Counted from the first letter of the stretch, positions 38,701-62,363 are shown. The stretch: DNA of 64,000 nt from Candidatus Microgenomatus sp. (GCA_020724585.1 DYGS01000001.1:486002-550001), one strand, 5' to 3'. Notes: generated by a model not told the origin, from the sequence alone. Translations and numbers: made by a program.

Positions 38701-38766
38701 GTCCGAGGGGATGGGAGAAACGCTTGGTCGGCGCTTTGCGCCGACCCGACAGGTCGCTGTCTTGTG
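38701..38766. repeat. Right copy of the 66-bp inverted repeat
   Basis: Exact reverse complement of 37101..37166. Confidence 0.9.
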
Positions 38767-39030
38767 CCTTTGTATGAAAAGGCACGAACTTATTTTATTC
38801 AAAATTTCTAAAGTACAAAGCATATTTTATCACGAAAGTGACAAACTTGTTTACCACAAAATTTTGATGTGTGAGCGGAGCAACAAGGGAGGGGTTAAAG
38901 GGGAAGGAATTGTTGCGGAGCATCGGGTTCCCGCTCAGCTCCGCTTCGCGGAGCTTCGCTAACCCATATCGTGTGTGCGCTCCAGGCCTCCACTCGCTTC
39001 GCTCGTTTCGGCCTTCCGCTTACCCACTGT
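38763..39030. repeat. 267-bp GC-rich repeat, copy 1 (inverted partner at 59512..59778)
   Basis: ~99% identical in reverse complement to 59512..59778 (one mismatch seen). Abuts the 66-bp repeat with no spacer. The ORFs at 38699..38962 and 59574..59774 are the same sequence read within the two copies. Confidence 0.9.
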
Positions 39031-39129
39031 GTTTTGTTGTTATGCCCAGCCCACGCTTACTGTTAACATAAAATACTCGTTTAACCTTATGAATACTTAT
39101 TTTATACAACTATGCCTGATGTAGCTTTG

Positions 39130-39645
39130 CTATTTCTTCCAAATTCCTATTTTATTTTGTTTTGCTTCTTCTTGTGCTTCTAATAATTGAACTTGATGAA
39201 TAAATGGCTTTCTTTTTTGATATATAACTAATTCAGCCATACCTTTTCGCACAAGTTCAATGGAGATGTTCTTTCCATCAATGATTGGATATGCAAGAAT
39301 TCTTCCAAATTTGTCTGAAGTATAATTGTCATATTCAAGTTTTATTTCTTTACCTTCAACTAAATTTCTATTTGCTTCAGTAGATTCTTTTTCAAAAGGT
39401 TCTCCAGTTTCAGGAGCTGTCATACCAACATATCGTAATACTGTACTGTTAAATAACTCCACAGTGTCTCCATCTATTACTCTTTTAACAACTGCAGTTT
39501 TGGGAAGTTTTGTAATATCATGGCTCTCAATTGCTTCTCTAGAATCTAAAACTTTTCTTATATCATCTTCATATTCTGTACCCTTTGCTAAATCCTTTAA
39601 ATTTTTAAGAAGATCAACTGGAACTAATACGAATTTATTATTCAT
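39130..39645 (-). CDS. Staphylococcal-nuclease (SNase/thermonuclease) family protein
   Basis: ...VIDGDTVELFNS...RYVGMTAPET...KFGRILAY... matches the SNase OB-fold catalytic pattern. Confidence 0.7.
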   Translation of the reverse strand: MNNKFVLVPVDLLKNLKDLAKGTEYEDDIRKVLDSREAIESHDITKLPKTAVVKRVIDGDTVELFNSTVLRYVGMTAPETGEPFEKESTEANRNLVEGKEIKLEYDNYTSDKFGRILAYPIIDGKNISIELVRKGMAELVIYQKRKPFIHQVQLLEAQEEAKQNKIGIWKK

Positions 39646-39674
39646 AATTTAATAATACTACCTTTTAATTATCC

Positions 39675-40955
39675 TTAAAACCAATCCCATTCTGGATTAT
39701 CTACTTCCTCAATTTTACTTTTGTTCATCTTGAACATGTTATCCTCTAAAACTGTTTCCCATGTCCCTTGGTAATAATGTGTTTCAAGTTCTCCATCTAC
39801 CCAGTTTTGAGTTGAAAATTTTACATACACAGTATCTTTAGAATTTTCATACTTTTCTGTATTTATGACTTCAACGTCTAAAATATCTGTAAATCTATTC
39901 GTCCATTCAGTAAAGTTTGTTTTTTCTAAATATTTTGAACTTAACAATTCAAATCCTTTTTCCATTTGTCGTGCTTTTAGATATGTGTAAAAAGCAAAAA
40001 CAGCGTCTTCAGGAGATTTTGTAGGATCGACTTCAATCTTTGTGATTTCTTGATCAGTTAAGTTGTGTAAATTGTTTTTAACATCAAAAGCTGTGATAAA
40101 AAATGATATACCTGCCAAACTTTGTGTATTTACACCGACAAGATTACCACATTGATCAACCAATGGACCACCACTCATTCCTTTAACCAAACTAATATTT
40201 GTTTGAATATATCCTACAAAATCTCTCCTACTTCTTCTGAAATCAATAAAATTACCCTTAACAATTGTTGGATTACCTGTTATCTCAGACCCCAATGGGT
40301 AACCAGCAGAGAGTAATATTTCGTCGTCATGCAAATCATACAAATCTCGAAGCTCATATACTTTCTCGGGATAATTTCCTGCAAGTGTTAAAACTGCAAT
40401 ATCCATATTTTTGTCTCCAACTATCTTTATTGGGGTTTCAAAATGTCCATCAGAAAAAACAACTTTTGGGCTAGGTTCATCTGCGATTACATGGAAATTT
40501 GTTACAACTTCAGTTGGAGTTATAAAAAATCCTGATCCTTCGCCATATCCACCTATAATTCTAGCAACAGATGATTGAAGTTTTGTTTTTACTCCAACAT
40601 CGCACCACAATTTACTGATATCACCATATTGTCTAGTAATGTAATCAGCAATAACTAAAAGTGAAAAGCAAATATATATAGTTAACCCGAACCAAACAAT
40701 AGTTTTTATAAAATTAGTAAATTTCAAAAATGGCCACTTAATCAAGAACCAAAGTAATTTAAATAGCTTAATTAAAAATACTATTAAGAATTTAACAAAA
40801 TAATAAGTTGAATAAGTTAAAAGTTTGATTGGAAATAGATATAAAGGGAAAAGAAGCCGTTTTATATATTTTTTAAACTTATCAAGGAATATAGTAGCTT
40901 TACCATGAAGTATGTTTGAAATTTTATCAATATTTTTGTTTATAATATTTTTCAC
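39675..40955 (-). CDS. Trypsin-like (S1/HtrA-type) serine protease with N-terminal membrane region
   Basis: TNFHVI (His), ...DIAVL (Asp) and GMSGGPLV (Ser) catalytic-triad motifs. N-terminal TM helices. Confidence 0.7.
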   Translation of the reverse strand: MKNIINKNIDKISNILHGKATIFLDKFKKYIKRLLFPLYLFPIKLLTYSTYYFVKFLIVFLIKLFKLLWFLIKWPFLKFTNFIKTIVWFGLTIYICFSLLVIADYITRQYGDISKLWCDVGVKTKLQSSVARIIGGYGEGSGFFITPTEVVTNFHVIADEPSPKVVFSDGHFETPIKIVGDKNMDIAVLTLAGNYPEKVYELRDLYDLHDDEILLSAGYPLGSEITGNPTIVKGNFIDFRRSRRDFVGYIQTNISLVKGMSGGPLVDQCGNLVGVNTQSLAGISFFITAFDVKNNLHNLTDQEITKIEVDPTKSPEDAVFAFYTYLKARQMEKGFELLSSKYLEKTNFTEWTNRFTDILDVEVINTEKYENSKDTVYVKFSTQNWVDGELETHYYQGTWETVLEDNMFKMNKSKIEEVDNPEWDWF

Positions 40956-40960
40956 TTCTC

Positions 40961-43900
40961 TTAATCAACATCATTCGTAGCAATATTAAAGAATCTTTCA
41001 AAGAATCTTGTTAGTTTATCAAGTACATTCTCACGTTTTTTGCTACGTTCGCCCGTTGGAGAAAAACGACCACCAGCAGGTAGTATTTTAGTGATCTCTG
41101 TACCTGTTGTTGCAACATTTCCGTTACGAAAAGCATTTTTAATAAATCGATATGTTGCTTCATGATCAAGATTTTCACTTGTAATAATTTGTTCAAGTTC
41201 TTCTACCTTTTTACCCTCAACAAATTTTTGCCAATCCTCCTCCACTACTGAATGTATATCAAGCGAAGATATAAACTGATTAATAAGATCTTTTTTGTTC
41301 CTAAGTTCGACGCTTGAATCTATAGCCTTATTTATATCAAGCAGTAATTCTTTATTTTTAGTATGATCCTCATGATATTTTTTAATTAAACCTAAGATAT
41401 AATCAATATTGATATCTATTTGTTTGATAAGCTCCATCTCAAAAACAATATCATCATTGACATTTTCCTTATCTACCTCGATATCTTTACGAAATTCGTT
41501 ATAAATATCGATGTAAGCACTGTGATAATCTTGAATATCTCGATCAGTCAAAATCTCGTTTCCTAAAAATTCATCAAAAGTAGCAAGTATATTTCGTACA
41601 CGTAAAATAGCACCATACAATTTAATAAAGTCTTTTTGATTCTGCTCGCCAACAATTCTTTCTCCAACAGGAAACTTTTCAAGTAGTTCTCTAACTAGAC
41701 TTTCATATCCACGTACATCCTTACCATCATCTTTATATCCGAAGTAATAATCATTATAAGCTTTTAAAAGAACGATTCCGCTAGCTTCTTTGTCACCAAA
41801 AAGAGCAATAGATTCATTTGTAGCTTTTTCAAGATTACGAAAACAAATAATATTACCAAAAGTTTTTATGCTATTTAAAATACGATTAGTCCTAGAAAAC
41901 GCTTGTAATAATCCATGCAATCTTAAATTCTTATCCACCCATAAAGTGTTTAGCGTTGTGGCATCAAATCCTGTCAAAAACATATTAACCACAATTAAAA
42001 TATCAATCTCACGATTTTTCATTCTTTCGCTTACATCTTTGTAATAGTTTTGAAATTTGTCGGATGAAGTATCATATGAAGTTCCAAACATCTGATTATA
42101 ATCACCAATAGCTTTTTCTAAGAAGTCTCTTGAGCTAACATCAAGTCCTGTTGTATCTTCTGAGTTTTCATCAATCATGCCATCCAAATCATCATCGTTT
42201 ACACCAAAACTATAAATTGTTGCAATTTTAAGTTGCTTATCGCTTGGAAGCCCTTCTAATTGTTTCTTAAATTCAGCGTAATATTTTTTAGCCACATCAA
42301 TTGTGGAAACAGCAAATATTGAGTTAAATCCTGCAAGTCTTCGATCCTTTAGTTTATAAAAAGTATTGCGCTTTGTTTTTTGATCAAAATGCTCTCTTAT
42401 ATACGTAACAATATTTGAAAGTCTCTCGGGAGCAGCTAAAATTGCCTCACGGTCTATATCACTTACTTTCTTATCTTCAATATTCTCGGCCTCACGAACT
42501 GTAGAAACGTAATCTACTTTAAACGGTAAAACGTTTTTATCAGATATAGCATCAACAATTGTATAAGTGTGTAATTTATCTCCAAACGCCTGTTCTGTTG
42601 TCTTTAAATTTGGTGTACCACCAGACGATGAATTCATGGCAAATATCGGTGTACCCGTAAATCCAAATATATGATAATTTTTAAATGCCTTAGTAATTGC
42701 TGTGTGCATATCACCAAATTGAGAGCGATGGCACTCGTCAAATATTAAAACAATATGATCTTCAAAAATTGTATGACCTGTATTTTTATTTATAAAACGA
42801 TCTAATTTTTGAATTGTGGTAATAATTATTTTCGCTTCTGGGTCACCCAATTGACGTTTCAAAATAGATGTACTTTTGTTACTATTGGCAGCACCTTTTT
42901 CAAATTTGTCATATTCCTTCATTGTTTGGTAATCTAAATCTTTACGATCAACAACAAAAACTACCTTTTTAATGTAAGGTAATTTACTAACAAGTTGCGC
43001 AGTCTTAAAACTTGTTAGTGTCTTTCCAGATCCGGTAGTGTGCCAAACATATCCACCTGCCTCGATTGTGCCTAACTTTTTATAATTTGTACTTATCTCA
43101 ATTCTTTTTAAAATTTTCTCAGTAGCAACTATTTGGTATGGTCGCATCACTAAAAGTAGTCGATCTGTTGTAAACACACAGTATTTAGTAAGGATATTCA
43201 GGAGCGTATGCTTAGCAAAGAATGTTTTAGCAAAATCAACTAAGTCAGTAATAGGACGGTTTGTTGCATCAGCCCACCAACTTGTAAATTCAAAACTATT
43301 ACTTGTTCTCTTTCCATTTTTAACAGAATTTCCGCCATTTTCTTTGACATACTGAAATCTAGTTGTATTACTATAATATTTTGTGTGTGTACCATTTGAA
43401 ATAATAAAAATTTGTATATACTCAAAAAGACCTGATTGAGCCCAAAAACTTTCTCTGTTATACCGATTAATTTGATTAAAAGCCTCTTGGATTGCCACGC
43501 CACGACGTTTAAGTTCGATATGTATAAGTGGCAGTCCATTAACTAGAACCGTAACATCGTATCGATTAGCGCGTTCTCCCTCGTCTGTTGCGTATTGATT
43601 AATAACTTGCAAACTATTGTCATGAATCGAATCTTTTTTAATAAGATAAATATTTTTAATAGCCCCATCATCACAAGTTAAATTTTTAATATAATCTTCT
43701 TGAATTGTAGTTGTTTTCTCAATAATGCTCTGATTTGGATTAGCAATTTCATTTTTGAAAAATCTTTCCCACTCTAAATCAGTAAAATTATATGAATTTA
43801 GTTTTTCAAGTTGTTTACGTAAATTTACAACCAAATCATTTTCAGATTTAATAGAAATATATTCGTATGCCTGTGATACAAGCTGTTTAATAAATTCTTT

Positions 43901-44023
43901 TTCCAGTTCAGCTTCACTTTGATACGTAGATTCACGTAGGTTGTTAGCAATCTCTGAGTAGTCAGCTACAACAGTACTTTCATTATTTTGTGAAACAATA
44001 TTATAATTTTGACTATTCGACAT
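40961..44023 (-). CDS. hsdR: Type I restriction enzyme R subunit
   Basis: 1020 aa. N-terminal PD-(D/E)xK region. SF2 helicase motifs (TGSGKT, DECH). Confidence 0.9.
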   Translation of the reverse strand: MSNSQNYNIVSQNNESTVVADYSEIANNLRESTYQSEAELEKEFIKQLVSQAYEYISIKSENDLVVNLRKQLEKLNSYNFTDLEWERFFKNEIANPNQSIIEKTTTIQEDYIKNLTCDDGAIKNIYLIKKDSIHDNSLQVINQYATDEGERANRYDVTVLVNGLPLIHIELKRRGVAIQEAFNQINRYNRESFWAQSGLFEYIQIFIISNGTHTKYYSNTTRFQYVKENGGNSVKNGKRTSNSFEFTSWWADATNRPITDLVDFAKTFFAKHTLLNILTKYCVFTTDRLLLVMRPYQIVATEKILKRIEISTNYKKLGTIEAGGYVWHTTGSGKTLTSFKTAQLVSKLPYIKKVVFVVDRKDLDYQTMKEYDKFEKGAANSNKSTSILKRQLGDPEAKIIITTIQKLDRFINKNTGHTIFEDHIVLIFDECHRSQFGDMHTAITKAFKNYHIFGFTGTPIFAMNSSSGGTPNLKTTEQAFGDKLHTYTIVDAISDKNVLPFKVDYVSTVREAENIEDKKVSDIDREAILAAPERLSNIVTYIREHFDQKTKRNTFYKLKDRRLAGFNSIFAVSTIDVAKKYYAEFKKQLEGLPSDKQLKIATIYSFGVNDDDLDGMIDENSEDTTGLDVSSRDFLEKAIGDYNQMFGTSYDTSSDKFQNYYKDVSERMKNREIDILIVVNMFLTGFDATTLNTLWVDKNLRLHGLLQAFSRTNRILNSIKTFGNIICFRNLEKATNESIALFGDKEASGIVLLKAYNDYYFGYKDDGKDVRGYESLVRELLEKFPVGERIVGEQNQKDFIKLYGAILRVRNILATFDEFLGNEILTDRDIQDYHSAYIDIYNEFRKDIEVDKENVNDDIVFEMELIKQIDINIDYILGLIKKYHEDHTKNKELLLDINKAIDSSVELRNKKDLINQFISSLDIHSVVEEDWQKFVEGKKVEELEQIITSENLDHEATYRFIKNAFRNGNVATTGTEITKILPAGGRFSPTGERSKKRENVLDKLTRFFERFFNIATNDVD

Positions 44024-45257
44024 ATTCTTTAAATGTTAGCAGTTTATTCCGATAGTATTCATATTGCAATCTACGGGCTTCAAGTTCAGCAGGTAAACCA
44101 ACTGAAATATCATTTACTAACGCGTCAAATTTATCCAAAATCGATACGATTCGATTTTGTTCGGATAAGGATGGAACAGGTACCTTAATTTTAGCAAGAT
44201 CCTTTGCAGAAACATCAATAACTTTAGTACCTTTTGCTAATTTTTTCTTTTCATCGAAAAAATATTTTGTTTGAGTGTAATAACTTAGATATTTTGGATT
44301 TTCCTTGTGTTTGAAAATTGAGGCATGTCCACCAGTAACAATCTCTTCATTTCCAAGCCAGGCGACGGTTTTACAAACGTCTTCAATATTCTCACTAGTA
44401 TTGGTTATTATCAAATCATTCTTTTGTACCCTTTGTAGTCTTTTGGCAGTTTCTCGAGATACAAAAGACTTAGTTTTATCGGCATAAGTACCGTAGTGTG
44501 TGTATATTTGACCATAGTGAATACATCCAACTCCATTTTCTGTAAAATCACTTTTAGGCAAGCCATTACCTCTCACAAATACACCAATATCTCCTAGTGC
44601 CTTTTGTTCTACTTTATCATCAAAAGTCATTAATTTATCTTTGTAATATCTATATTGTTTATTCCTTGCTTCTAATTCTGCTTCTAATTCTGCTTCTAAT
44701 TCTGCTTCTAATTCTGTAAAACTATTAAGAATTTTGACAATCTCATTTTGAATTGTAAGTGGTGGAACGGGAATTTTAAATTTTGTAAATTCCTCTTTTG
44801 TAATTGTTTTGATAGTACTACCACGAGCAATTTGCCTTTCAATATTAAATTTACTTTGTAGTTGATATGCAAAATATTTTTTATTTATCTCAATCTTATA
44901 ACTTTCGAAAATTGCCAGTGTACGATCTACATAACAATCATATTGGGTAATTGCAACTCGGCCTATGCTACCCTGCAAAGTCACAAGTACTGTATCCATT
45001 GGTACAAAAACGCTCATTTTTTGTGCTAACTTTGAGATTTTACGTTTTGTATTGTTAACTAACCGCATATCCTTAGCAACATCTGCAACCTGCACAAAAG
45101 GCTTCGCGTCTTCACCGTCGTACCAATTCTTATCACCATATGGTTGAGGAAATGAACCACGTCGATATGCCGCTATTTCACCTAGCTCCATATATTTCAC
45201 ACCATTAGGACATAACTCTAAAATCAGCTGATCAAATTTGCTTTGGTGCTTTGTCAT
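44013..45257 (-). CDS. hsdS: Type I R-M specificity subunit
   Basis: 414 aa. Two target-recognition domains separated by a central coiled-coil containing (ELEA)x4. Overlaps hsdR by 11 bp. Confidence 0.85.
   Translation of the reverse strand: MTKHQSKFDQLILELCPNGVKYMELGEIAAYRRGSFPQPYGDKNWYDGEDAKPFVQVADVAKDMRLVNNTKRKISKLAQKMSVFVPMDTVLVTLQGSIGRVAITQYDCYVDRTLAIFESYKIEINKKYFAYQLQSKFNIERQIARGSTIKTITKEEFTKFKIPVPPLTIQNEIVKILNSFTELEAELEAELEAELEARNKQYRYYKDKLMTFDDKVEQKALGDIGVFVRGNGLPKSDFTENGVGCIHYGQIYTHYGTYADKTKSFVSRETAKRLQRVQKNDLIITNTSENIEDVCKTVAWLGNEEIVTGGHASIFKHKENPKYLSYYTQTKYFFDEKKKLAKGTKVIDVSAKDLAKIKVPVPSLSEQNRIVSILDKFDALVNDISVGLPAELEARRLQYEYYRNKLLTFKEYVE
44668..44715. repeat. Perfect 12-bp x4 tandem repeat (gcttctaattct) inside the hsdS central conserved region
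   Basis: Four identical head-to-tail units, in frame, encoding ELEAELEAELEAELEA. Confidence 0.9.
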
Positions 45258-45272
45258 AAAAAATATTTATAT

Positions 45273-46598: not shown

Positions 46599-46601
46599 AC
46601 A

Positions 46602-48155: not shown

Positions 48156-48213
48156 AATATGTGCTTAATTTGCCTTGTTTTTATTTTACTACTTTTTAAT
48201 ATAAAATGACTAT

Positions 48214-52676: not shown

Positions 52677-53450
52677 ATGAAAAAAATAACAGATGTTCAA
52701 GGCCAAGTAGATTTACGTGACCTTGATATCAAAAAGGTCGGTATAACAGGATATGCATATAGAGGTATGTTGTTGCTCGGAAAAGAAATTGTTCCTGCAC
52801 AAGGAACAGCTAATTGTTTCGCCTACCTAGACAAAAGTAAAAAAGGAACACATATGTCACGCATGTCAAGGAATTTGAATCAACTAATTGACAAAACAAT
52901 TTCGCTTGATAATTTTGAACCTGTCTTACAAAAAATATATTCGGATTTAGAAACCCCTCAAATATATGTAGAAATAACAGCCAATTCAATTAGAACAAAA
53001 GAATCACCTGTATCTAAAAATGTTGGATTTGAGGAATTTAAAATTAACCTAGATCTAAAAATAGACAATGGTGACTTCTACGGAACATGTACGCTAGCAT
53101 TTACAGGTACATCTTTGTGCCCCGCATCAAAAACAAATAGCAAGCATGGTGCCCACAATCAAAGGTCAGTAGTTAAAGTCAAGTTTCCATTTGAAGAAAT
53201 CAATAAATTAGGCGACTATTTACACACAGCGGAAGAACAATTAAGCGCAATCGTGTACCCAGTAATTAAGTTAGACGACGAGGCCTATATTACAGAGAAG
53301 GCTTATGAAAATGCTAAATTTGTTGAAGATATTGTACGCGATGTTGTCAGAGGTCTCCAAAAGAACGATTTAAAATTTACATTAGTTTCATGCGAAAACC
53401 TCGAGTCAATACATACGCACAATGCATATGCTGAAATTGTTATTAAATAA
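52677..53450 (+). CDS. GTP cyclohydrolase FolE2/MptA family (DUF198)-like
   Basis: 257 aa. Contains ITDVQGQVDLRDLDIKKVGI..., GTHMSRMS and LCPASK, which parallel the FolE2 conserved DVQ, HMSR and Cys motifs. Confidence 0.55.
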   Translation: MKKITDVQGQVDLRDLDIKKVGITGYAYRGMLLLGKEIVPAQGTANCFAYLDKSKKGTHMSRMSRNLNQLIDKTISLDNFEPVLQKIYSDLETPQIYVEITANSIRTKESPVSKNVGFEEFKINLDLKIDNGDFYGTCTLAFTGTSLCPASKTNSKHGAHNQRSVVKVKFPFEEINKLGDYLHTAEEQLSAIVYPVIKLDDEAYITEKAYENAKFVEDIVRDVVRGLQKNDLKFTLVSCENLESIHTHNAYAEIVIK

Positions 53451-54724: not shown

Positions 54725-54727
54725 AAT

Positions 54728-55879
54728 GTGCGTATGTCAAGTGATATAACTATAAATACTAAATTATATAAACAAATATTTGAGGAAACTACAAATATAC
54801 ACGATGATACAGTCTCAACCGTTGACCATGTTTTTGGCAGCCCTCCTTTAAGACTCATTGATAGCCACTCAAAAATGATAAAGTTTAATTCCGCGACTCC
54901 AATCTTGTGGGATACAACCAAGCCAAATATTGATAAGTACAGAGTTGAATTAATATTGGATCTTGGATTTTTATCATCTAAAAATAATGAGTATCTACTT
55001 TATAACCCGCGAGAATACTATTGTTTATCTGAAACAAGAGATGTTAATTTTAACAAGCAAAGGGAACAGTTGAAATGTATTATGAAACATCCATTCTTAA
55101 ATACTATTTCATCTAGTGATAAACAAAAATATCTTAATAGAGTTGATAAACTAATTAACATCTATTCTGAGTTGTTGCATAATAAAGCCAATTGTAGTGA
55201 TTTTTATATACAGCTGTTATCAGAAATCTATAAACTATTAGGATTCACAGATTTATCAAGTTTTATTAGCAATAAAATGATTTCACAATATAATTCAGGT
55301 CTTATTGACAAATATATTCCGGAAATGATTACCATAACAAAAAATGATGTCTTTGGGTTTTTGAATCTGCTTGATAAAGGGAGTTTCTTTACACCACCTT
55401 ATTTTAGATCAATAAAACCTAATATATATGGAGTTGATAAATTTGATAAAAATGAGGTTATCAAAAATATTGAGTTAATCATTAAGCTACTTCAGAAGAA
55501 AGTTATTTTACCTCACCATTCAATTTATTTTTGGGCTTGGGGTTTGTCTGGAATCAATCATTTTGGTAACGATTACGGCGACTTTACACAGATTGAAGAT
55601 ACACTGTTAAATTTAAATATCAAAAATAACATTTCAAAATTACAATTAACATTACCAAAACAGGATGGTTTGAATTTTGCATTTTTTAAAAATACATGCA
55701 CTTTTTCATCAAAAAAAGCATTGAGCACAACTAAATTTAATGTTAGTAATACAAAACCATCAAGGGCTAGTAATATTTGTTCAATCTATTTAAATTCAGG
55801 GGATCATTTTATTGAATATTGGAATGATTATAAAAATTACAAAAAAATATCTGAGCTAGATATGAAAAATATTGTTTAG
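54728..55879 (+). CDS. Hypothetical protein
   Basis: 383-aa ORF, tightly coupled to the upstream gene (4-bp gap). Confidence 0.35.
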   Translation: MRMSSDITINTKLYKQIFEETTNIHDDTVSTVDHVFGSPPLRLIDSHSKMIKFNSATPILWDTTKPNIDKYRVELILDLGFLSSKNNEYLLYNPREYYCLSETRDVNFNKQREQLKCIMKHPFLNTISSSDKQKYLNRVDKLINIYSELLHNKANCSDFYIQLLSEIYKLLGFTDLSSFISNKMISQYNSGLIDKYIPEMITITKNDVFGFLNLLDKGSFFTPPYFRSIKPNIYGVDKFDKNEVIKNIELIIKLLQKKVILPHHSIYFWAWGLSGINHFGNDYGDFTQIEDTLLNLNIKNNISKLQLTLPKQDGLNFAFFKNTCTFSSKKALSTTKFNVSNTKPSRASNICSIYLNSGDHFIEYWNDYKNYKKISELDMKNIV

Positions 55880-56547
55880 AGCATTCTCAATCTATTAAGT
55901 AACTCTTGATTATTATCTTCTGAAATGGATTTTGCATATCTGGTTACTGTATACGCACGTTTGTATTCGTCCATCTTATCTTGTTCGTTTAATCTAAGCG
56001 CAAGCAATAACCTTATTTTTTCTCTAGGATGAATTTCTTGGTACTCTGTAACTAATACATTCTTGCCTGCTTTCAAAGATTCCAATGCATTTTCTCGGCT
56101 ACTTTTAAATAGTCGGATCGAATAAAAGGTTAGAACATTACCAATTTTAAAATATCTATCTAATGCCTCTTCGTGACCATAATCAAACTCCTCATCTAGT
56201 AATCTACTATCTCTAACTGGCAATGGATAAAAATCAACAAACTCAATTTTATTTTGTCCTAAAAAATTAGCTGGATTTGAATCAATGCCATATCGATCAA
56301 ATTTGAGTTTTGTTAATGCCTGAACAATTTCAGAAATGTTTCTAGACTCTTTGGAAGCTATCACGTCTTGTTCAAAAACTAAAGAATTATCAACAAATCT
56401 TACATTTGTTGTGGGTGAACTTATCCCTACATCCCCCAACCAATCTCTATACCCCTGTAATTCATTTTTAATTACTTCATATGCATATTCTGTTGCTGGA
56501 ACTCTTTTATATATAGTCTGATTGTCTATATGAATTTCAGCCCTCAT
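55876..56547 (-). CDS. Hypothetical protein
   Basis: 223 aa. Overlaps the upstream P-loop gene by 11 bp. Confidence 0.35.
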   Translation of the reverse strand: MRAEIHIDNQTIYKRVPATEYAYEVIKNELQGYRDWLGDVGISSPTTNVRFVDNSLVFEQDVIASKESRNISEIVQALTKLKFDRYGIDSNPANFLGQNKIEFVDFYPLPVRDSRLLDEEFDYGHEEALDRYFKIGNVLTFYSIRLFKSSRENALESLKAGKNVLVTEYQEIHPREKIRLLLALRLNEQDKMDEYKRAYTVTRYAKSISEDNNQELLNRLRML

Positions 56548-57118
56548 AGTATTTTAGTTTGTCATCCAGTAAATTTTCTAGATGAGCCTCTGTTTTTAAG
56601 AGGGTCTCTTGAAAATTACCATTGTTTTGAATTAATTTGAATTTTTTATTCTGATGATATTTTACGTTCTTGATGCCGTGTTCCTTAATTGATCGTTTAA
56701 AATGTGTGTTAGGATATTCACCACGAACATATATTATCTCCTCTTCTACATCTAATATTACACCGCCAATAACTTTTTCATTCGAGGTTAAATACTGGGT
56801 GTCTGTTTGAACTCCGTCAAATATAGCGTTAACTCCAGTTGAATCGTATGAATCAATCATAAAATCAATAGCTTTATTGAAAATAATATTAGCTTCATTG
56901 TGTTCAAAATTCTCTAATTGATTAACAGGTATGTCTGGCCTAAAAAAACGTAGCAGTTTGCTAATAATGCCTAAGTTAACTGACTGATAAAAATCATATT
57001 TCTTAATAATCTCTTTTGTTAAGGCTGTCTTGCCCGTTGAATTATTCCCAGTTATAAAAAAGATAACAGGTGCACCTTTTTGATTGAGTTTTTTTATTTT
57101 ATCGTTTATTTCGCTCAT
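56537..57118 (-). CDS. P-loop NTPase/kinase-like protein
   Basis: Walker A FFITGNNSTGKTAL. 193 aa, the size of small nucleoside/nucleotide kinases or zeta-toxin-like kinases. Confidence 0.45.
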   Translation of the reverse strand: MSEINDKIKKLNQKGAPVIFFITGNNSTGKTALTKEIIKKYDFYQSVNLGIISKLLRFFRPDIPVNQLENFEHNEANIIFNKAIDFMIDSYDSTGVNAIFDGVQTDTQYLTSNEKVIGGVILDVEEEIIYVRGEYPNTHFKRSIKEHGIKNVKYHQNKKFKLIQNNGNFQETLLKTEAHLENLLDDKLKYYEG

Positions 57119-57164
57119 AATTTAAATTATACAGTAATAATTACGTTTGTGATAAAATCTAAAT

Positions 57165-57797
57165 ATGAATTTATATTTAGTTAGACATGGCAAAACTGAT
57201 GCAAAAGAAAATAACAAAAAACAAGATCCTACAACACCTTTAAGTGTCGAGGGCATAAAACAAGCTGAGGCTGTAGCCGATAGACTTTTAAAAGAGCAAG
57301 TAGACGTACTTATTTCAAGCAAATGGGACAGGGCATACCAAACTGCAGAATTTATATCTAAAAAACTTAGTCTTGATTTAACTACCACTGAAGGGATACA
57401 AGAAAAAGAACACAATCCAATTATCTATGGCGTAGATCGAAATAGTGAAGTATTTAAGAAGTTTAATGAAGAATCTGAAACTTTAGGTAACAACCTAGAT
57501 TGGAAATTTGAAGGCAAGGGTGAATCTGTTAGAGATTTGATTAACAGAGCGATTAAATTTCAAAAGTATCTAATTGATAATTATTCAGATAAAAATGTAT
57601 TAGTTGTAAGTCATGGACAATTTATTCGAGCCTTTACGATTATTTCTCTATTAGGTTTAGACTACAACGATGAAACATTTTATAAATTATATACAAGCAT
57701 ATCTCCAAGCAATACAGGAATAACACATTTTGAATATGATACAGAAAGAGACCATTGGGAACTTGTTTATTTTAATGACCATCTTCATATTAGATAA
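57165..57797 (+). CDS. Histidine phosphatase (phosphoglycerate-mutase-like) family protein
   Basis: LYLVRHGKT (RHG catalytic motif). 210 aa. Confidence 0.75.
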   Translation: MNLYLVRHGKTDAKENNKKQDPTTPLSVEGIKQAEAVADRLLKEQVDVLISSKWDRAYQTAEFISKKLSLDLTTTEGIQEKEHNPIIYGVDRNSEVFKKFNEESETLGNNLDWKFEGKGESVRDLINRAIKFQKYLIDNYSDKNVLVVSHGQFIRAFTIISLLGLDYNDETFYKLYTSISPSNTGITHFEYDTERDHWELVYFNDHLHIR

Positions 57798-57800
57798 ATC

Positions 57801-58541
57801 CTAAATTGTAGTTGTTGGAGCAGGGGTTGGTTCCATGGTTGAAACAACTGTAGGAATAGGAGTGGATGTTTCAGTTGGCTTTGGTGTTGGAGTAACTGTA
57901 GGAATTGGTACTGGTGTTGTTGATAATACTTCAAGATCTTGTATATCTTCAACTTCAAGTACTTTGTTTTTTGAATCATATGTACCTACTGCAAGTATTC
58001 TTTTTCCAACAAGAGAATTTAAATTAAAACCAATTGGTATTTCAAGAGTTACCGCTTCTGTAGAAGTAGTAATTAAATAGAATTTAACAGGATTAGTATT
58101 TGTTTTTGTTAATGTTCCTTTTAATGCAGTATCTTTTAGTAACTCAGGTTGTGGAGTTGGGGTTTTATTAGTGACAATTGCACTGTTAAATTTAAGGTTA
58201 GGAAAGAACATTGGAAAAACAACTCCTCCTAACCCAAATACTCCTGAAAATATAATTAAGGCTAGACCAAAAATTGTTAGTGGTTTAACCTTAATTTTCA
58301 TCTCTAACCCTTCATTTGCAAGTATTCTTTTCCACCAGTATTTAATATATACAAGTGGATTAGTTACTTTTAAATTAACAAGATCAGGTGGATTAGTAGT
58401 GTTTACACTTGTTGGGTTGTTTGTAGTTATTGTAATTGGTGGTAGTTTAGTTACATCTTCTTTTGGAACAAACTTTCCGTCAGCATCACGTTTCTGATTC
58501 TTTGCAATATTACTTCTAATTGGATCAACTGTTTCATCCAT
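57801..58541 (-). CDS. Secreted/membrane-anchored hypothetical protein with Thr/Pro-rich C-terminal tail
   Basis: One TM helix. C-terminus ...PVPIPTVTPTPKPTETSTPIPTVVSTMEPTPAPTTTI. Confidence 0.35.
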   Translation of the reverse strand: MDETVDPIRSNIAKNQKRDADGKFVPKEDVTKLPPITITTNNPTSVNTTNPPDLVNLKVTNPLVYIKYWWKRILANEGLEMKIKVKPLTIFGLALIIFSGVFGLGGVVFPMFFPNLKFNSAIVTNKTPTPQPELLKDTALKGTLTKTNTNPVKFYLITTSTEAVTLEIPIGFNLNSLVGKRILAVGTYDSKNKVLEVEDIQDLEVLSTTPVPIPTVTPTPKPTETSTPIPTVVSTMEPTPAPTTTI

Positions 58542-58619
58542 ACAATATAAATATATTCCTGTAGAAATTAAGAAGCAATGGCAATTTAAAAAGGTATATA
58601 ATAAATTTATTCATAGACA

Positions 58620-59117
58620 ATGAAACTAAACAAAATACATATATTCTTATTGATATCCTTTGCTTTTATTGCCATTTTATTTTCAACCTCAAATGTTTCT
58701 GCAGGTGGTGGTCCACAATTTGTTTGTAAAGAAATGGCTCAAAAACAAGGATGGTTAATTGATGACACAAAGTTTGATGAAGATTTATCTAGTAATGCTT
58801 GTATTTCAAGAAACCCAACAACTGAAGAAAAAGATAAAATTTTTGAATTTTGTAAGGCAGAACCAAAAGGAGAATTTAGGATTGATTGTTTAGATAAATG
58901 TAGAAAGTATTATTCTGACACTACATTTCGTGAATGTAGTAAAAATGAAATTAGCTCAATAAAATCTGCGATGTTTACATCTAAGGCTAAGAGTATTTTT
59001 AATAGACAATTAACATTAACAGAAACAATTGTTGTTGCTTTTGTGGTTGTTTTAATCTTCTACTTAATTGTTTCCTTATTTAAAAGTAAAAAATCTTCAA
59101 ATAAACAAAGTGTCTAA
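58620..59117 (+). CDS. Hypothetical secreted protein with C-terminal membrane anchor
   Basis: Signal peptide. Cys-rich. C-terminal TM helix. Confidence 0.35.
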   Translation: MKLNKIHIFLLISFAFIAILFSTSNVSAGGGPQFVCKEMAQKQGWLIDDTKFDEDLSSNACISRNPTTEEKDKIFEFCKAEPKGEFRIDCLDKCRKYYSDTTFRECSKNEISSIKSAMFTSKAKSIFNRQLTLTETIVVAFVVVLIFYLIVSLFKSKKSSNKQSV

Positions 59118-59511
59118 TAACTGTTCCGTCCTGCCCTATACATTGGCCAAAGGCCAACCACACCTGTAAGCTCTGGAGTGTTTTTGTGTTGGGCAGGATT
59201 CCCTGTTAAGGGAATATTTCAGGAGCAATGATTTTGTTGTTCTGCCTTCTAACCAAGTGCTGTGCCAAAGGCACTTTGTAGCTGTTTTCTAGCACTTGGT
59301 TTAGTTGCCCTAAATGGGCAAATTGCGACTGAAATTGTTCTAGTTTTAGGTACTTTAACGGTAACGGTAGCCGTTACCGTCAGCCGTCAACCGTCATACG
59401 GTAGTTTGGCCGAAAATACGGCTATTTGACGGATTCTGTAAAGTACCTGACGGGTATCCGTCAAGCCCTTCATAAGGGCTAACTACAAATAATCCCCTTT
59501 TCCTTAAAGTG
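59118..59511. ncRNA. Candidate structured non-coding RNA, identity undetermined, contiguous with repeat copy 2
   Basis: ~400 bp with no ORF. GC-rich relative to the flanks. It contains many perfect local stems: cctgccc/gggcagg, accaagtgct/agcacttggt, gtgcc-aaa-ggcac, and ggtaacggtagccgttacc. It is contiguous with the duplicated GC-rich 267-bp segment at 59512..59778. Confidence 0.35.
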
Positions 59512-59778
59512 GGTAAGCGGAAGGCCGGAACGAGCGAAGCGAGTGGAGGCCTGGAGCGCACACACGATATGGGTTAGCGAAGCTCCGCGAAGCGGAGCTG
59601 AGCGGGAACCCGATGCTCCGCAACAATTCCTTCCCCTTTAACCCCTCCCTTGTTGCTCCGCTCACACATCAAAATTTTGTGGTAAACAAGTTTGTCACTT
59701 TCGTGATAAAATATGCTTTGTACTTTAGAAATTTTGAATAAAATAAGTTCGTGCCTTTTCATACAAAGGCACAAAAAC
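59512..59778. repeat. 267-bp GC-rich repeat, copy 2 (inverted relative to 38763..39030)
   Basis: Reverse complement of copy 1. Contains mutually exclusive helices GCTCCGC-gaa-GCGGAGC and GCGGAGC-n16-GCTCCGC. Confidence 0.9.
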
Positions 59779-62363
59779 TAATGTTTGGTGTCTCTTGAGA
59801 AAAATCTAATTCTGTCGCCTTTGAAGTAAAGCGGAATTGAAGCCAGCGGGCCGTTTCTGTGTTTGGCAATATCCAAAACCACATTTTCCAAATTCTCATC
59901 ATCTTCGCGCCACAAAAACATAACCACATCTGCATCCTGTTCGATGCTATTGTGAACTATGATATTATTCGCTACAAAATTAGAATTTTTTGGCACGGTT
60001 GCGTCATATACTTTTCTAACTCCTACATATTCAATTTCTTTGACTTCGTCCCAATATATGTCAGAATTCGCTAATAACTTTAACTTCTCATTTTTTATTT
60101 TTGAATAAATCTGCATAAGTCTTCTCCTACTTATTCCATTCCCAAATCTTTGTGTTCCGCTGTAAGCCCACCCCATAAGCTTATGAAATTCTCTATGTGT
60201 CATATTCTTCTCTTTAACTACCATTTTAATTAAGCTCCAAACCTCTTTTGGAATAACATCATTATTAGGATTTTCTATTATATTTCGTAAAAATTTAATT
60301 GCTTCTTTTACTTTTTCATTTTTTTTACCAACACAACCTATTTCGTTTAAAAATTTCAATTGACTTTCTTTTCCATAAATATTGATATTAAACACATCTT
60401 TGTGTCCCTTATTAATAGATTTTGATATCTTGGAGATAATTCCTAGCCGAGTTAATAAGTATTGAATTTGAGAGACAAGAGTATAACTATTTGAAGCGTA
60501 GTAGACTGTAACTTTAGATTTTTTCTTACCAACTTGTGTATGGATACAACCATCTGTTGCCCATAAATGCTTTAAAAATAATTTAATTTTAGTGTTATCC
60601 AAATTCATAACTTCATCGGGTATTAACTTTTGGTATGAATGATGACCATATATTTTTAGGTCTCTAAACCACCTAACGATTGGATTATGTCTACCTCTTG
60701 CCAATTTTCCTTTTGAAGATAAATAAAGGTGATACCAACTTTTTTGTTTAATCACCCTTGGGTTAATTTCAAACTCATCTAATGCTGCTTTTTTAAGAAT
60801 ATTAATTAAACTCATATCTGAATTTGTATAATGTAAAGGTTGACCTTCTACATAACAACCATCACCAATCATGTGAGCTAAAACAATTAGATTGCTGTCT
60901 GAAATGTTTCCCGTACCCTTAACATTAATTACTCGAGGAACGGCTATACGATCACCTATCTCCAACTTATCTAATCTTTGCCATTGTTCAAATTTCAAAA
61001 ATTTGTGATTTCCAGAGGCCACAATTTCTCTTCCACTTTTTAGTTTTAGTTTATATACCTTTTTTCTGCCACTATTAAAAACTTTAGTGACTTTTGATGG
61101 TACTAATTTCATATCTTCATTTAAGGATATAATTTCAAAGTTATCCTTACCCACAAGCTCGTCAATTCTTATTTGTTTACCTGTTGGATAAATTGTTACA
61201 AGACTATCTCCTAATAGGCATCCGCTCTCGCGAAGGTCAGAAAGTTGTGGTTTTTTAATATTTCTTGATTCCACTCCTCGAGACAGCTGTGACAATGCCA
61301 AAACAGGAACCTTAAGTTCTCTGGCTAAGTTTTTTAAACCCTGTGAAATTTCTGATACTTCTTGAACCCTATTTTCCAAATTCCTGCTTCGAGCAAGCTG
61401 GAGATAATCAACCACAATTAAATCAACTCCATGCTCTACCTGCAATCTCCTTGCCTTTGTTCTCATTTCAAGAATTGACAGAGCGGGAGTATCGTCTATA
61501 AAAAGCGGTGCTTCGGCCAAAACCCCCATGGCTGTTGAGAGTTTGGCAAAATCATCTTCCGACAGTTTACCTGTTTTTAACTTCCAAGCATCAATATCTG
61601 CCTGACTCACCAATAATCTATCAACCAATTCCTCCCTGCTCATTTCAAGTGAGAAAAAGCCAACAGGTCTTTTGGTCAAAACCGAAACATTTTGAGCAAT
61701 TGAAAGAGCCATTGTGGTTTTTCCAACACCTGGCCGTGCTGCCAGAATTATTAAATTACTTTTCTGCATTCCCGCAAGAGCACTATCCAGATCGGCAAAA
61801 CCAGTCGCGACCCCTCTTAAACCCTCCCCTTGCTTCTGCAGTTCATCAAGTCTATCAAAACTTTCTGCTAGAGTGTCTCTAACTGATGTAAATGCGCTTT
61901 TGATGGTCTTTTGCGAAAGAGAAAAAATTTCGCTTTCTGCTTTGTCTAATAATTCTTCAGATGAAACCCCAACATCAGTTGACATGCCTACAAGTTTTGT
62001 TGCCGACTTCAATAAGCTTCTCTTTATTGCAGTATCTTTAACAATTCTGCCGTAATGCTCAACATGAGCGCTGGTTGGAACTTTATTAACTATGTCCGTC
62101 AAATACGAAGCGCCGCCTATTATTTTTAAATCTTTTCTTTTTTTAAGCCTTTCAGTAACTGTCAAAACATCAACAGGCACTCTCTCTTCATACAAAGAAA
62201 GCATTGCCTCAAATATTTTTTTGTGGCGGTCATCATAAAAATCATCCGGCGACAAAAATTCAGAAACAGCAATTACTGCATCTTTATCCAAAAGAAGTGC
62301 TCCCAAAACACTTTGTTCAGCATCTACACTGTGGGGTGAGGTCTTAATATCAATATCAGCCAT
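59778..62363 (-). CDS. dnaB: Replicative DNA helicase DnaB containing a 424-aa intein
   Basis: DnaB N-domain and Walker A (ARPGVGKTTMALS). The host motif SDLRESG is interrupted by CLLGDSLV...IIVHN, then resumes SIEQDADVVMFL. The extein totals 437 aa. Confidence 0.95.
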   Translation of the reverse strand: MADIDIKTSPHSVDAEQSVLGALLLDKDAVIAVSEFLSPDDFYDDRHKKIFEAMLSLYEERVPVDVLTVTERLKKRKDLKIIGGASYLTDIVNKVPTSAHVEHYGRIVKDTAIKRSLLKSATKLVGMSTDVGVSSEELLDKAESEIFSLSQKTIKSAFTSVRDTLAESFDRLDELQKQGEGLRGVATGFADLDSALAGMQKSNLIILAARPGVGKTTMALSIAQNVSVLTKRPVGFFSLEMSREELVDRLLVSQADIDAWKLKTGKLSEDDFAKLSTAMGVLAEAPLFIDDTPALSILEMRTKARRLQVEHGVDLIVVDYLQLARSRNLENRVQEVSEISQGLKNLARELKVPVLALSQLSRGVESRNIKKPQLSDLRESGCLLGDSLVTIYPTGKQIRIDELVGKDNFEIISLNEDMKLVPSKVTKVFNSGRKKVYKLKLKSGREIVASGNHKFLKFEQWQRLDKLEIGDRIAVPRVINVKGTGNISDSNLIVLAHMIGDGCYVEGQPLHYTNSDMSLINILKKAALDEFEINPRVIKQKSWYHLYLSSKGKLARGRHNPIVRWFRDLKIYGHHSYQKLIPDEVMNLDNTKIKLFLKHLWATDGCIHTQVGKKKSKVTVYYASNSYTLVSQIQYLLTRLGIISKISKSINKGHKDVFNINIYGKESQLKFLNEIGCVGKKNEKVKEAIKFLRNIIENPNNDVIPKEVWSLIKMVVKEKNMTHREFHKLMGWAYSGTQRFGNGISRRRLMQIYSKIKNEKLKLLANSDIYWDEVKEIEYVGVRKVYDATVPKNSNFVANNIIVHNSIEQDADVVMFLWREDDENLENVVLDIAKHRNGPLASIPLYFKGDRIRFFSRDTKH
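59949..61220 (-). mobile_element. Intein (Cys1 ... His-Asn, +1 Ser) with LAGLIDADG homing-endonuclease domain inside dnaB
   Basis: Splice junctions ESG|C and HN|S. Internal LAGLIDADG-type motifs (LIVLAHMIGDGCYVEG; LKHLWATDGCIHTQ). Coordinates come from codon counting: Cys382 at 61220..61218 and Asn805 at 59951..59949. Confidence 0.85.

Follow-up and report, generated by a model that had tools for sequence, protein, structure and literature searches.

As judged by sequence comparison, the DNA between a tRNA-Leu gene and dnaB in the window (the whole 64-kb stretch analyzed here) is a 22.7-kb mobile island. A large serine recombinase (LSR) inserted it at the end of the tRNA gene, an event that cut the LSR's own gene. 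With moderate confidence, we favor the overall explanation that the segment 37101-59774 is an LSR integrative element of a kind spread across Patescibacteria, and preferably one that is self-limiting by design.

Extent of the insertion

On the left, the insertion adjoins a tRNA-Leu(CAA) gene (37019..37103, plus strand), identified by ARAGORN, by Rfam (tRNA, 55.2 bits) and from the junction sequences. The segment of this gene from the T-arm to the CCA end forms the left (B) attachment half-site, and the gene is intact after insertion. On the right lies the host flank, consisting of an intein-containing dnaB (59778..62363, minus strand; Pfam), with 3 nt between attR and the dnaB stop codon. The two ends, attL and attR, share only a 5-nt core, at 37101 and 59770. 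A first-pass annotation of this DNA had proposed that a relative with tRNA-Leu directly next to dnaB would identify the region as an insertion, and such an empty site is present in L091, where the order is dnaB, 4 nt, tRNA-Leu and EF-P. As the L091 tRNA-Leu sits 4 nt from the dnaB stop codon, the whole of 37104-59774 was inserted, with the LSR gene as part of it; the absence of the recombinase from the L091 empty site likewise places the LSR gene within the mobile unit (37101-59774). The earlier proposal of a 20.5-kb mobile cassette was therefore drawn too narrowly. Synteny is also kept in L092 and L094, both of which lack the LSR.

Repeats and attachment sites

Two pairs of inverted repeats were delimited by repeat search and direct comparison. 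The first, a/a' (37101-37167 and 38700-38766), is 67 nt long without mismatches and encloses the LSR gene. The second, b/b' (38762-39028 and 59508-59774), is 267 nt long and 99.6% identical, with a single mismatch at 39008 (T against C), and encloses 20.5 kb of cargo. No additional copies of either repeat were present within the window, and repeats this long cannot have originated by chance. The first-pass annotation had been right about 267-bp arms of about 99% identity, and its pairing of the copies holds; it gave the shorter repeat as 66 bp and placed the far arm 4 nt off, at 59512-59778.

The a' and b copies form one contiguous block (38700-39028) in which they overlap by 5 nt, TTGTG, the reverse complement of CACAA. 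In reverse complement, the block is cut exactly at the pentamer, one part lying at the tRNA-Leu 3' end (37101) and the other at the dnaB stop (59774). This agrees with the earlier suggestion that a split at a common nucleotide marks a site-specific crossover, for which the adjacent serine recombinase is a fitting enzyme. Of the three junctions, tRNA-Leu|a corresponds to attL, a'|b to an intact attP in inverted orientation, and b'|dnaB to attR, with the core CACAA common to all (37101..37105, 38762..38766 and 59770..59774, respectively). Arm a (37101..37167) comprises the P' arm of attP and the last 22 recombinase codons before the crossover (VRGDGRNAWSALCADPTGRCLV), while a' (38700..38766) repeats the recombinase 3' end in inverted form, on the upstream side of the putative recombinase promoter. 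The near arm b (38762..39028) is the P arm of attP; it contains a tRNA-like GTTCG hairpin (38764-38785), a promoter-like, outward-facing extended -10 that reads across the core (38832 to 38824, minus strand) and a conserved hairpin (38880-38916). The 267-bp arms had been taken for the ends of a cassette, but the far arm b' (59508..59774) represents one half of a split attP, the one now at attR, and the near arm is part of a second, intact and inverted attP.

The recombinase gene

The LSR gene as integrated (37059..38615, minus strand) encodes 518 aa with the Pfam domains Resolvase (PF00239, E 2.5e-21; N-terminal, catalytic), Recombinase and Zn_ribbon_recom (PF07508 and PF13408). The YARKSTD motif, which contains the nucleophilic serine S20, and residues D88, R89 and R92 did not vary among 34 sequences, and homologues reach 93% identity. 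One homologue (P0004), as modeled with AF2, forms a long helical hairpin over 370-449 and in Foldseek matched the SPbeta integrase (E 2e-20) and also the LI, Bxb1 and PhiC31 integrases, the top hits being full-length. A promoter-like element, TTGATT-17 nt-TATAAA(T) (38625..38654, minus strand), was recognized by sequence comparison about 10 nt 5' of the ATG and is kept in L008, L009 and L010.

The body of the gene is intact, but the tRNA gene supplies the 13 residues at its end (VREGFEPSWCCHH) as well as the stop. The reading frame runs through the attP core, and the native last 14 codons, stop and 3' UTR are encoded in b. Because the frame crosses the core of the attP used for integration (P1, see below), the gene body was left at attL with 13 tRNA-encoded residues and the native tail at attR, where its coding sequence lies inside b', parted from the gene (59725-59769, minus strand). 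The position of the LSR 3' end within the repeats had been overlooked by the first-pass annotation.

The native tail, xLYxxARTYFxxNx*, has 12-16 residues, which are replaced by tRNA-encoded ones when the element is integrated. A spare copy (PLYEKARTYFIQNF plus stop; 38767..38811, plus strand), recognized through virtual ORFs and codon analysis of 36 loci, shares its frame with a' and is unconnected to the gene in the present orientation. Beyond the core, [LFI]Yxx[AVI]RT[YH]FxxNx* was encoded in 36 distinct loci with the signs of a coding sequence, namely third-position wobble, synonymous CGA/AGA arginine codons and a fixed stop. The tails actually present in integrated copies are variable, tRNA-derived sequence, and the native tail was present in about 9 of about 105 complete database homologues.

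Cargo

The 20.5-kb cargo (39029..59507; Pfam and PADLOC) includes an SNase, a trypsin-like protease and a complete type I R-M system with an embedded Shedu-like gene. It further holds NUDIX, PPase-like and histidine phosphatase genes and an operon encoding a kinase, an Hsp70-like protein, a MTase, FolE2 and unknowns. Pfam thus confirmed the nuclease, protease, R-M system and operon noted in the first-pass annotation. The SNase gene with a 100-nt spacer (39029..39645, minus strand) adjoins the near arm and is kept in the related elements L010 and L044 (80-82% identity by blastn). At the other end, a module with CCGTCA/TGACGG repeats (59300..59507; sequence comparison) also adjoins a far arm in L010. 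No virion, packaging or conjugation genes were found among the cargo proteins with Pfam and PADLOC, and a comparison with 2.9 million viral contigs yielded only six, weak, relatives of the LSR.

Distribution in Patescibacteria

On comparison of related loci, the layout is a family trait, common to dozens of elements in ultra-small (CPR) bacteria. A repeat flanks the LSR in 43 of 49 evaluable Patescibacteria loci (at least 98% identical in 27 of those 43), and the distal arm adjoins a tRNA 3' end in 60 of 65, with at least 16 tRNA types represented. A second repeat, present in 18 of 28 loci, meets the first with an overlap of 3-10 nt and encloses 0.87-9 kb of unrelated cargo. LSR identity within the family falls to 44%. 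The duplicated stretch is perfect, 130-600 bp long, and always runs from a conserved SNL motif at the LSR 3' end to beyond the stop. We found no published description of such a nested-repeat, self-splitting LSR layout.

In 30 of 35 loci, the distance to the core is 23 nt from GTTC[GT] in the P arm and 19 nt from the GTTCRA T-loop motif in the tRNA arm. This 4-nt offset agrees with the published attP/attB offset of LSR DBD2 motifs, which lie about 5 bp nearer the center in attB than in attP (PMC11722253). Neither a candidate recombination directionality factor (RDF) nor a second conserved protein was found in the family elements, and minimal elements of 3 kb hold the LSR and one unrelated gene only. 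An RDF could be host-encoded or absent.

Isomers

Across the family, 60 loci have the canonical orientation and 4 are flipped. Flipped integrated isomers with a full-length LSR include L177 and, as judged by layout, L021, L028 and L032. In three short contigs (L178, L179 and L180), the LSR has on either side a repeat that continues through the core; these double-attP contigs may not be circles, because the upstream genes of L180 look host-like. Flipped, full-length and double-attP forms make up about 6-8% of cases in assemblies. Further, L025 and L030 share cargo that lies in opposite orientations. These comparisons support inversion of both cargo and LSR segment at the level of the family only, and the earlier idea of an invertible region is sustained to that extent. 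As described for A118 (PMC3556126), attP is a poor partner for a second attP with published LSRs and does not react with attL or attR at all, so that the inversions would be mostly the work of homologous recombination.

Proposed mechanism

Integration went through P1, the attP into which the LSR gene runs at its 3' end. P2, the internal attP, keeps a spare native 3' end, inverted and just upstream of the LSR promoter, and would serve the LSR as a reserve. Excision would recombine site 1 with site 3, in direct orientation, and should yield a circle in which the LSR gene is flanked by two inverted copies of attP. Recombination within a/a' is predicted to flip the 1.5-kb LSR segment, and recombination within b/b' the cargo, with every junction unchanged in either case. 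Inversion of the LSR segment would rejoin the gene with a native tail. Truncation of the recombinase by integration may thus produce the common, stable state, and rare inversion would give back the full-length enzyme for the next round.

Several observations count against this explanation, among them the restricted choice of att partners in published LSRs and the failure to find an RDF candidate. Two identical attP on a circle also predict equal numbers of the integrated isomers, and the observed canonical to flipped ratio of about 15:1 requires an extra assumption such as survivorship or cis preference. Only 14 residues are exchanged at the LSR end, and in the P0004 model the tail is a short terminal helix behind a disordered linker, without informative contact. 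We raise only tentatively the broader idea of a bacterial serine-recombinase 'suicidal integrase' with inversion reset and state-controlled directionality, in a family of compact integrases that would recognize the universal stretch of tRNA genes from T-loop to CCA end. If this idea is correct, the arrangement in which recombination has left the recombinase gene would set directionality, replacing a separate directionality factor; loss of the tail on integration would lock the element, and a/a' inversion would re-arm it via the spare tail.

Alternative explanations

A rather unlikely alternative, though one to be taken seriously, accepts the same element but gives the internal attP no regulatory role: the circle would carry two equivalent inverted attP, either of which could serve for integration, gene conversion would keep the repeats identical, and selection after integration would cause the orientation bias. 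The occurrence of both integrated isomers and of double-attP contigs is compatible with this, and arms that are identical inside one element and diverged between elements point to concerted evolution. Equivalent sites nevertheless leave unexplained why the duplication constantly covers the stretch from the SNL motif to beyond the stop, and why a neutral duplication would last through phylum-level divergence. The 15:1 ratio of isomers is not accounted for either.

We give little credence to the first-pass proposal of a 20.5-kb cassette that the recombinase inverts or excises by acting on the 267-bp arms. The arms are indeed inverted and nearly identical, and the L025/L030 pair shows common cargo in both orientations; the L091 empty site, however, defines a larger inserted unit. 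As the arm cores are inverted, recombination between them can invert but never excise, and, as different elements hold unrelated cargo and none of the genes extends across an arm, inversion would have no evident switching output.

It is similarly improbable that the internal attP is an operator or decoy. On this view the LSR would bind a'|b, which lies 85 nt upstream of the LSR promoter, and so autoregulate its transcription or be titrated in the integrated state. The site does lie directly upstream of the conserved LSR promoter, and the promoter-like extended -10 in b reads over the core. About 50 bp would suffice for such a role, however, leaving superfluous a perfect copy of 130-600 bp with coding tail, stop and 3' UTR.

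By analogy with CTX-phi and integron attC sites, a single-stranded stage might be imagined in which a/a' and b/b' pair and the stems stack into a double-stranded attP. The geometry would agree, with a'b contiguous and b'|a abutting, and CPR bacteria probably depend on taking up DNA. Serine recombinases cut all four strands, however, and recombination of such a dumbbell with attB would leave hairpin-capped chromosome ends, which makes this reading very unlikely.

It is scarcely credible that the repeats stem from faulty assembly, through collapse or a chimeric join: public short-read assemblies identical to the window (L001-L007, independent, 100%) do end about 30 nt (k-1) into the repeats, and order across repeats is hard to assemble, but L005, from another run, continues from dnaB through b' to 59200 as the window does, which makes a chimeric join unlikely, and dozens of independent assemblies, from various assemblers and phyla-level lineages, have this architecture too. 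Equally hard to credit are two independent side-by-side elements, a-LSR-a' and b-cargo-b', each forming its own circle; both segments do have an inverted repeat of their own at the ends, and the cargo is modular, yet the end cores are inverted and CACAA has no palindromic dinucleotide, so that conservative serine recombination would invert rather than excise them, and no t|a-LSR-a'|c locus lacking b was found where the flank sufficed.

Comparison with known systems

The element resembles those of large serine integrases (PhiC31, Bxb1, A118/LI, SPbeta; TnpX/TndX) in domain set and fold, in having short att sites that share a tiny core, in its attB/attP/attL/attR logic, and in a motif whose distance from the center is greater in attP than in attB (4 nt greater here, 5 bp as published). 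It differs in that the attP core falls inside the recombinase reading frame and in carrying a second intact inverted attP, so that the integrated element has attL, attP and attR together. In addition, no RDF candidate was found, phage and conjugation genes are lacking, and the family targets many different tRNAs at the universal stretch between T-loop and CCA end.

Integration at tRNA genes and variable cargo are shared with the tycheposons of Prochlorococcus, which are reportedly small, located at tRNA genes and equipped with variable niche-related cargo in streamlined genomes; we know of no tycheposon with nested inverted repeats or a self-splitting recombinase gene. The predicted circle recalls the yeast 2-micron plasmid, in which FLP/FRT lies inside 599-bp inverted repeats and inversion drives copy-number amplification. 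In both, a long inverted repeat containing the recombinase target divides the circle, with the recombinase gene in one unique segment. The 2-micron plasmid is eukaryotic and non-integrating, however, FLP is a tyrosine recombinase, and the present element shows no sign of replication.

In the Mu Gin/G segment, P1 Cin and the R64 shufflon, inverted repeats lie in coding sequence and inversion swaps the C-termini of genes. Alternative C-termini may likewise be produced here, loci of both orientations being known in nature across the family. In contrast to these switches, the gene with alternative ends is that of the recombinase itself and one of the ends is accidental tRNA sequence. A 518-aa LSR with zinc ribbon and coiled coil takes the place of a small invertase with a C-terminal HTH and an enhancer, and arms of 60-220 nt, as opposed to short gix/hix-type sites, suggest homologous recombination.

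A parallel to the split gene is provided by the 'suicidal' SSV-type tyrosine integrases of archaeal viruses and plasmids, in which the core also lies inside the integrase ORF and integration splits the gene (PMC8371274). The same 2021 review places self-disrupting recombinases exclusively in Archaea. As the present enzyme is a serine recombinase from a Patescibacteria host, the resemblance is one of analogy and not of membership; moreover, integration here detaches just the last 12-16 codons, and a spare copy of them lies beside the gene.

Inverted repeats and their common core

A repeat search and direct comparison of the arms confirmed the two pairs of inverted repeats and the shared split point that had been reported in the first-pass annotation. 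Arms a (37101-37167) and a' (38700-38766) flank the gene for a large serine recombinase (LSR) and are 67 nt long with 0 mismatches. Arms b (38762-39028) and b' (59508-59774) flank a 20.5-kb cargo and are 267 nt long with a single mismatch at 39008; the earlier description holds apart from its far-arm coordinates, which were 4 nt off. Because a' and b share a 5-nt overlap (TTGTG, whose reverse complement is CACAA), the segment 38700-39028 is contiguous. Its reverse complement is split at CACAA between the 3' end of tRNA-Leu(CAA) (37019-37103), which adjoins arm a, and a point 3 nt from the dnaB stop (59778). No further copies of either repeat were found elsewhere in the 64-kb window.

Seven public contigs identical to the window (L001-L007) terminate about 30 nt inside the repeats, the usual behaviour of de Bruijn graphs at repeat borders, and L005, which derives from a separate run, continues from dnaB through b' to 59200 in the same order as the window. 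Judging from these contigs, an assembly artefact is unlikely. L005 (a Logan contig, SRR6488399) stops at 59200 within the unique far-end region, where there is no repeat border; this could reflect a strain variant or a drop in coverage.

Insertion between tRNA-Leu and dnaB

In one common orientation, the junction of the tRNA 3' end (t) with a (site 1) reads ...CTCTCGCAC CACAA GACAGCG..., the b'/a junction, which is the reverse complement of a'/b (site 2), reads ...ACAAAGG CACAA GACAGCG..., and the junction of b' with the dnaB-side flank c (site 3) reads ...ACAAAGG CACAA AAACTAATG.... By sequence, these junctions are the attL/attP/attR pattern of site-specific insertion at an attB of the form t/c, and an intact, inverted attP persists in the integrated element. 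The cores of sites 1 and 3 are direct, so their recombination would excise the element. The core of site 2 is inverted relative to both and CACAA contains no palindromic dinucleotide; if site 2 recombined with either of them by the conservative serine mechanism, inversion would therefore be the only outcome. Two independent, abutting terminal-inverted-repeat elements are ruled out by the core polarity.

The flanking genes encode EF-P on the left and DnaB with an intein on the right, and relatives were found by scanning metagenome contigs with the EF-P protein. In L091 (EF-P 74% identity; DnaB 77-86% identity, without intein), the order is an MBL-like gene, dnaB, 4 nt, tRNA-Leu(CAA) and EF-P, with the junction ...AGCCACAAATTATTTTGAATGCTTAG...; the empty site predicted for the window is ...TCGCACCACAAAAACTAATG.... 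Two further relatives (L092, L094) carry dnaB no more than 1.7 kb from tRNA-Leu, with no LSR and no repeat between them. Since these three relatives lack an LSR at this position, the inserted unit extends beyond the 20.5 kb between the long arms: by this comparison, 37104-59774, recombinase included, is the true insertion. The first-pass annotation had proposed that adjacency of tRNA-Leu and dnaB in a relative would identify the island as an insertion, and L091 bears this out. Its site-specific crossover, mobilisable region and fitting adjacent recombinase also stand, while its arm-to-arm boundaries give way to 37104-59774; the splitting of the recombinase gene had been overlooked. The dnaB gene itself (59778-62363, minus strand) encodes 861 aa including an intein with a LAGLIDADG homing-endonuclease domain, and the L091 orthologue (441 aa) has no intein.

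Recombinase and cargo

The LSR gene (ATG at 38615, stop at 37059, minus strand) lies in the 1.53 kb between a and a' and encodes 518 aa with Resolvase, Recombinase and zinc-ribbon domains. The structure model of an 81%-identical homologue matches the full-length SPbeta, LI, Bxb1 and PhiC31 integrases. An exact-protein look-up of the 518-aa LSR gave no match, probably because short-read contigs are broken inside the repeat at the 3' end of the gene.

The cargo between b and b' encodes an SNase, a trypsin-like protease, a histidine phosphatase and a type I R-M system with an inserted Shedu-like gene (45273-46598, minus strand; SduA_C/DUF4263, PADLOC SduA 1.4e-17), situated between hsdS and hsdM. 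An operon at 48618-55879 encodes an APH-like kinase, an Hsp70/MreB-like ATPase, a SAM methyltransferase (PADLOC mad2, 2.5e-19), a FolE2-type GTP cyclohydrolase I and two proteins without a Pfam match; genes for a NUDIX and a pyrophosphatase-like protein lie divergently upstream. This operon may be a nucleotide-modification or defence module. No phage or conjugation genes were seen in the element.

The recombinase gene crosses attP

In the protein alignment, the LSR stretch encoded by arm a is conserved (...FGSNLxLENKxVRGDGxxxWSALRAxPTGRxxV, with W492 invariant); in many loci the conserved SNL motif marks the inner border of this arm. The residues that follow derive from the tRNA T-loop (GxEP). 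When each LSR was joined in silico across the core to its neighbouring b arm, the window and 35 other distinct loci yielded a native tail of 12-16 residues with the consensus [LFI]-Y-x-x-[AVI]-R-T-[YH]-F-x-x-N-x-stop. In the window this tail is PLYEKARTYFIQNF, giving a native-tailed protein of 519 aa, and in L009 (LSR 76% identical, at tRNA-Tyr) it is PLFKKVRTYFIQNF, each followed by a stop; across TYFIQNF there are 4 synonymous and 0 non-synonymous changes. Variation falls mostly at third codon positions, arginine alternates between CGA and AGA, and the stop position is fixed in 29 of the 36 loci, all of which argues for protein-coding constraint. Integrated copies instead end in tRNA-derived tails of 3 to more than 50 residues (VREGFEPSWCCHH and a stop in the window).

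On these reconstructions, b comprises the tail, stop and 3' UTR with which the LSR transcription unit natively ends, and integration via P1, the attP at the LSR 3' end, split the gene. P2, the internal a'/b site, is an inverted spare of the last 36 LSR codons and the 3' UTR, placed 85 nt upstream of the ATG. A promoter in b driving the LSR, considered as a reason for the near arm, was weakened by a conserved promoter-like element in the unique 84 nt beside the ATG. An AF2 model of a full-length homologue was uninformative on the partner of the tail.

The shared core usually corresponds to the NCCA end of the tRNA (CACCA, CTCCA or TACCA). Measured from the repeat border, the tRNA T-loop motif GTTCRA is at 19 nt, and the P-arm motif GTTC[GT], which falls within the tail's Ala-Arg-Thr codons, is at 23 nt; 30 of 35 loci show an offset of exactly 4 nt. 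Structural work on LSRs placed the DBD2 motifs 5 bp nearer the centre in attB than in attP (PMC11722253). Because the 4-nt offset resembles this difference, the P arm looks like a tRNA 3'-end mimic shifted outward. This supports reading t as the B-type and b' as the P-type half-site, and explains the use of many tRNAs.

A conserved layout

LSR homologues number in the thousands (best 93% identity) and occur mostly in CPR/Patescibacteria. We examined 83 loci, 3 from exact-protein look-ups (L008-L010) and 80 (L011-L090) from one representative genome per species, with LSR identities of 44-67%. An inverted repeat of 40-220 nt surrounds the LSR gene in 43 of the 49 loci whose flanks were long enough (27 of the 43 repeats being at least 98% identical), and a tRNA gene of at least 16 types abuts the LSR 3' end in 60 of 65. 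Where at least 5 kb of upstream sequence was available, 18 of 28 loci carry a second inverted repeat of 137-317 nt (at least 99% identical in 11), which begins at the end of the first with an overlap of 3-10 nt and encloses 0.87-9 kb. The L008 and L009 contigs (k = 141) end about 140 nt beyond the core, within b, so b is repeated in those genomes as well. By this comparison, the window represents the conserved design with a large cargo: tRNA, a, LSR, a' joined to b, cargo, b' and flank.

The smallest cargos are single unrelated genes (for a hydrolase-like protein; a GNAT; an alanine racemase-like protein; ProRS with a kinase). No second protein is conserved across the cargos of the compared elements, and hence there is no obvious directionality factor. 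A scan of viral contigs with the LSR returned only 6 weak loci, and a phage family was rejected on that basis.

A second b-like arm with its own far-end module lies 4-9 kb past the tRNA in L010 (9010-9145) and L044 (20293-20436). As it is just 85-88% identical and has that module of its own, an alternative arrangement was rejected; a neighbouring second element probably ends there, suggesting that LSR elements cluster. In a large share of the CPR MAG contigs (L011-L090), at most a few hundred bases separate the LSR from a contig end. From this pattern, LSR-element repeats appear to break CPR metagenome assemblies systematically where tRNA genes lie, with consequences for MAG quality.

Small features of the b arms

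A search of 36000-61000 against Rfam (E up to 1) returned the tRNA, two chance-level matches and nothing else. On both strands b is predicted to fold into stable RNA (z -3.9 and -4.6), which is uninformative on strand or function. A conserved hairpin in b (38880-38916 and 59620-59656), with a 23-nt loop GGGAGGGGTTAAAGGGGAAGGAA on the LSR-sense strand, had no Rfam match; its stem covaries, being GCAACAA/TTGTTGC in the window and L010 and TTCTCCAA/TTGGAGAA in L008 and L009. Each b arm also contains an extended -10-like element, TGATAAAAT, at 38824-38832 (minus) and 59704-59712 (plus), directed outward over the crossover core and kept in L008, L009 and L010 as TGGTAAAAT, TGGTAAACT and TGATATAAT. 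The putative far-arm copy would read antisense to the dnaB 3' end. A far-end module at 59300-59507 comprises four CCGTCA, two TGACGG and the perfect hairpin GGTAACGG-TAG-CCGTTACC; it is conserved beside a far arm in L010 (9145-9400) and could be a protein-binding array or an origin.

Alternative isomers

Four loci (L021, L028, L032 and perhaps L069) have a flipped layout, with the tRNA 5' of the LSR, a beside the tRNA and the contig ending in a'. L177 is a complete flipped isomer: host genes, tRNA-Val, a and a full-length LSR ending in SVYDSARTYFTTNF and a stop, with the contig end 50 nt on. Among the 120 best database homologues, about 89 have tRNA-type tails and about 9 the native tail.

In L178, the repeat (153 nt, 1 mismatch) extends over the core, so that each side of the LSR carries the tail, the stop and a further 32 nt, and 10 kb of cargo comes next; similar forms, with arms 88-90% identical, occur in L179 and L180. 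This order (P1, LSR, P2, cargo) would be the arrangement expected for an excised circle. L180 carries a full-length LSR between two attP-type arms (79-2023) beside SufC/SufD-like genes that resemble host core genes, and these upstream genes do not fit a simple excised circle. Cargo genes common to L025 and L030 (LSR 83% DNA identity) point in opposite directions with respect to the LSR. Within an element the arms are identical, yet between elements they have diverged, so recombination or gene conversion between arms must be ongoing.

Proposed mechanism

The att sites, insertion, LSR identity, split reading frame, spare 3' end, family-wide layout and alternative isomers in assemblies are established at the level of sequence comparison, and the following steps are proposed. 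Recombination of site 1 with site 3 would release a circle with two inverted attP copies. The LSR segment would invert across a/a' and the cargo across b/b'. The A118 integrase did not recombine attL or attR with attP, and its attP x attP rate was below 5% of that for attP x attB (PMC3556126); for this reason the inversions are probably mostly homologous recombination. Inversion of the LSR segment would reconnect the native tail.

These steps could form a self-limiting cycle, in which integration via P1 strips the native tail to give a stable, prevalent form and rare inversion restores the full-length enzyme. We put this forward tentatively, as possible rather than probable. Under such a cycle, the roughly 15:1 bias between isomers would reflect stability or survivorship of the truncated state. 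In the main rival reading, the second attP does no more than permit integration via either site. It is less likely that the internal attP is an operator or decoy, or that the repeats serve a single-stranded DNA fold. The self-limiting cycle would offer a possible control of LSR direction without a directionality factor, which is open to testing.

Comparison with known systems

Patescibacteria have tiny genomes and few recognised mobile elements. LSR elements are a major route by which these bacteria gain genes, and one that is apparently undescribed; their cargo can be as little as one metabolic gene or as much as a 20-kb island for defence and nucleotide salvage. As compact LSRs whose target is set by the universal tRNA T-loop and CCA end, they could serve as integration tools, including in hard-to-manipulate CPR bacteria. 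No description of the architecture was found in open-access papers and bioRxiv.

The element agrees with large-serine-integrase integrative elements in the sequence-level features that could be tested. It differs from them in retaining attL, attP and attR together, in having the attP core inside the recombinase gene, and in its lack of a visible RDF or of phage or conjugation genes. Gin, Cin and shufflons swap C-termini via repeats in coding sequence, and the repeat-within-coding-sequence logic here recalls them by analogy; the predicted circle similarly recalls the 2-micron plasmid. The closest analogy for the split gene is provided by the SSV-type 'suicidal' tyrosine integrases, whose self-splitting genes were described as exclusive to Archaea in a 2021 review (PMC8371274). 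The window element is no member of that group, as both the chemistry and the domain of life differ, and it extends self-splitting integrase genes from archaeal tyrosine to bacterial serine recombinases.
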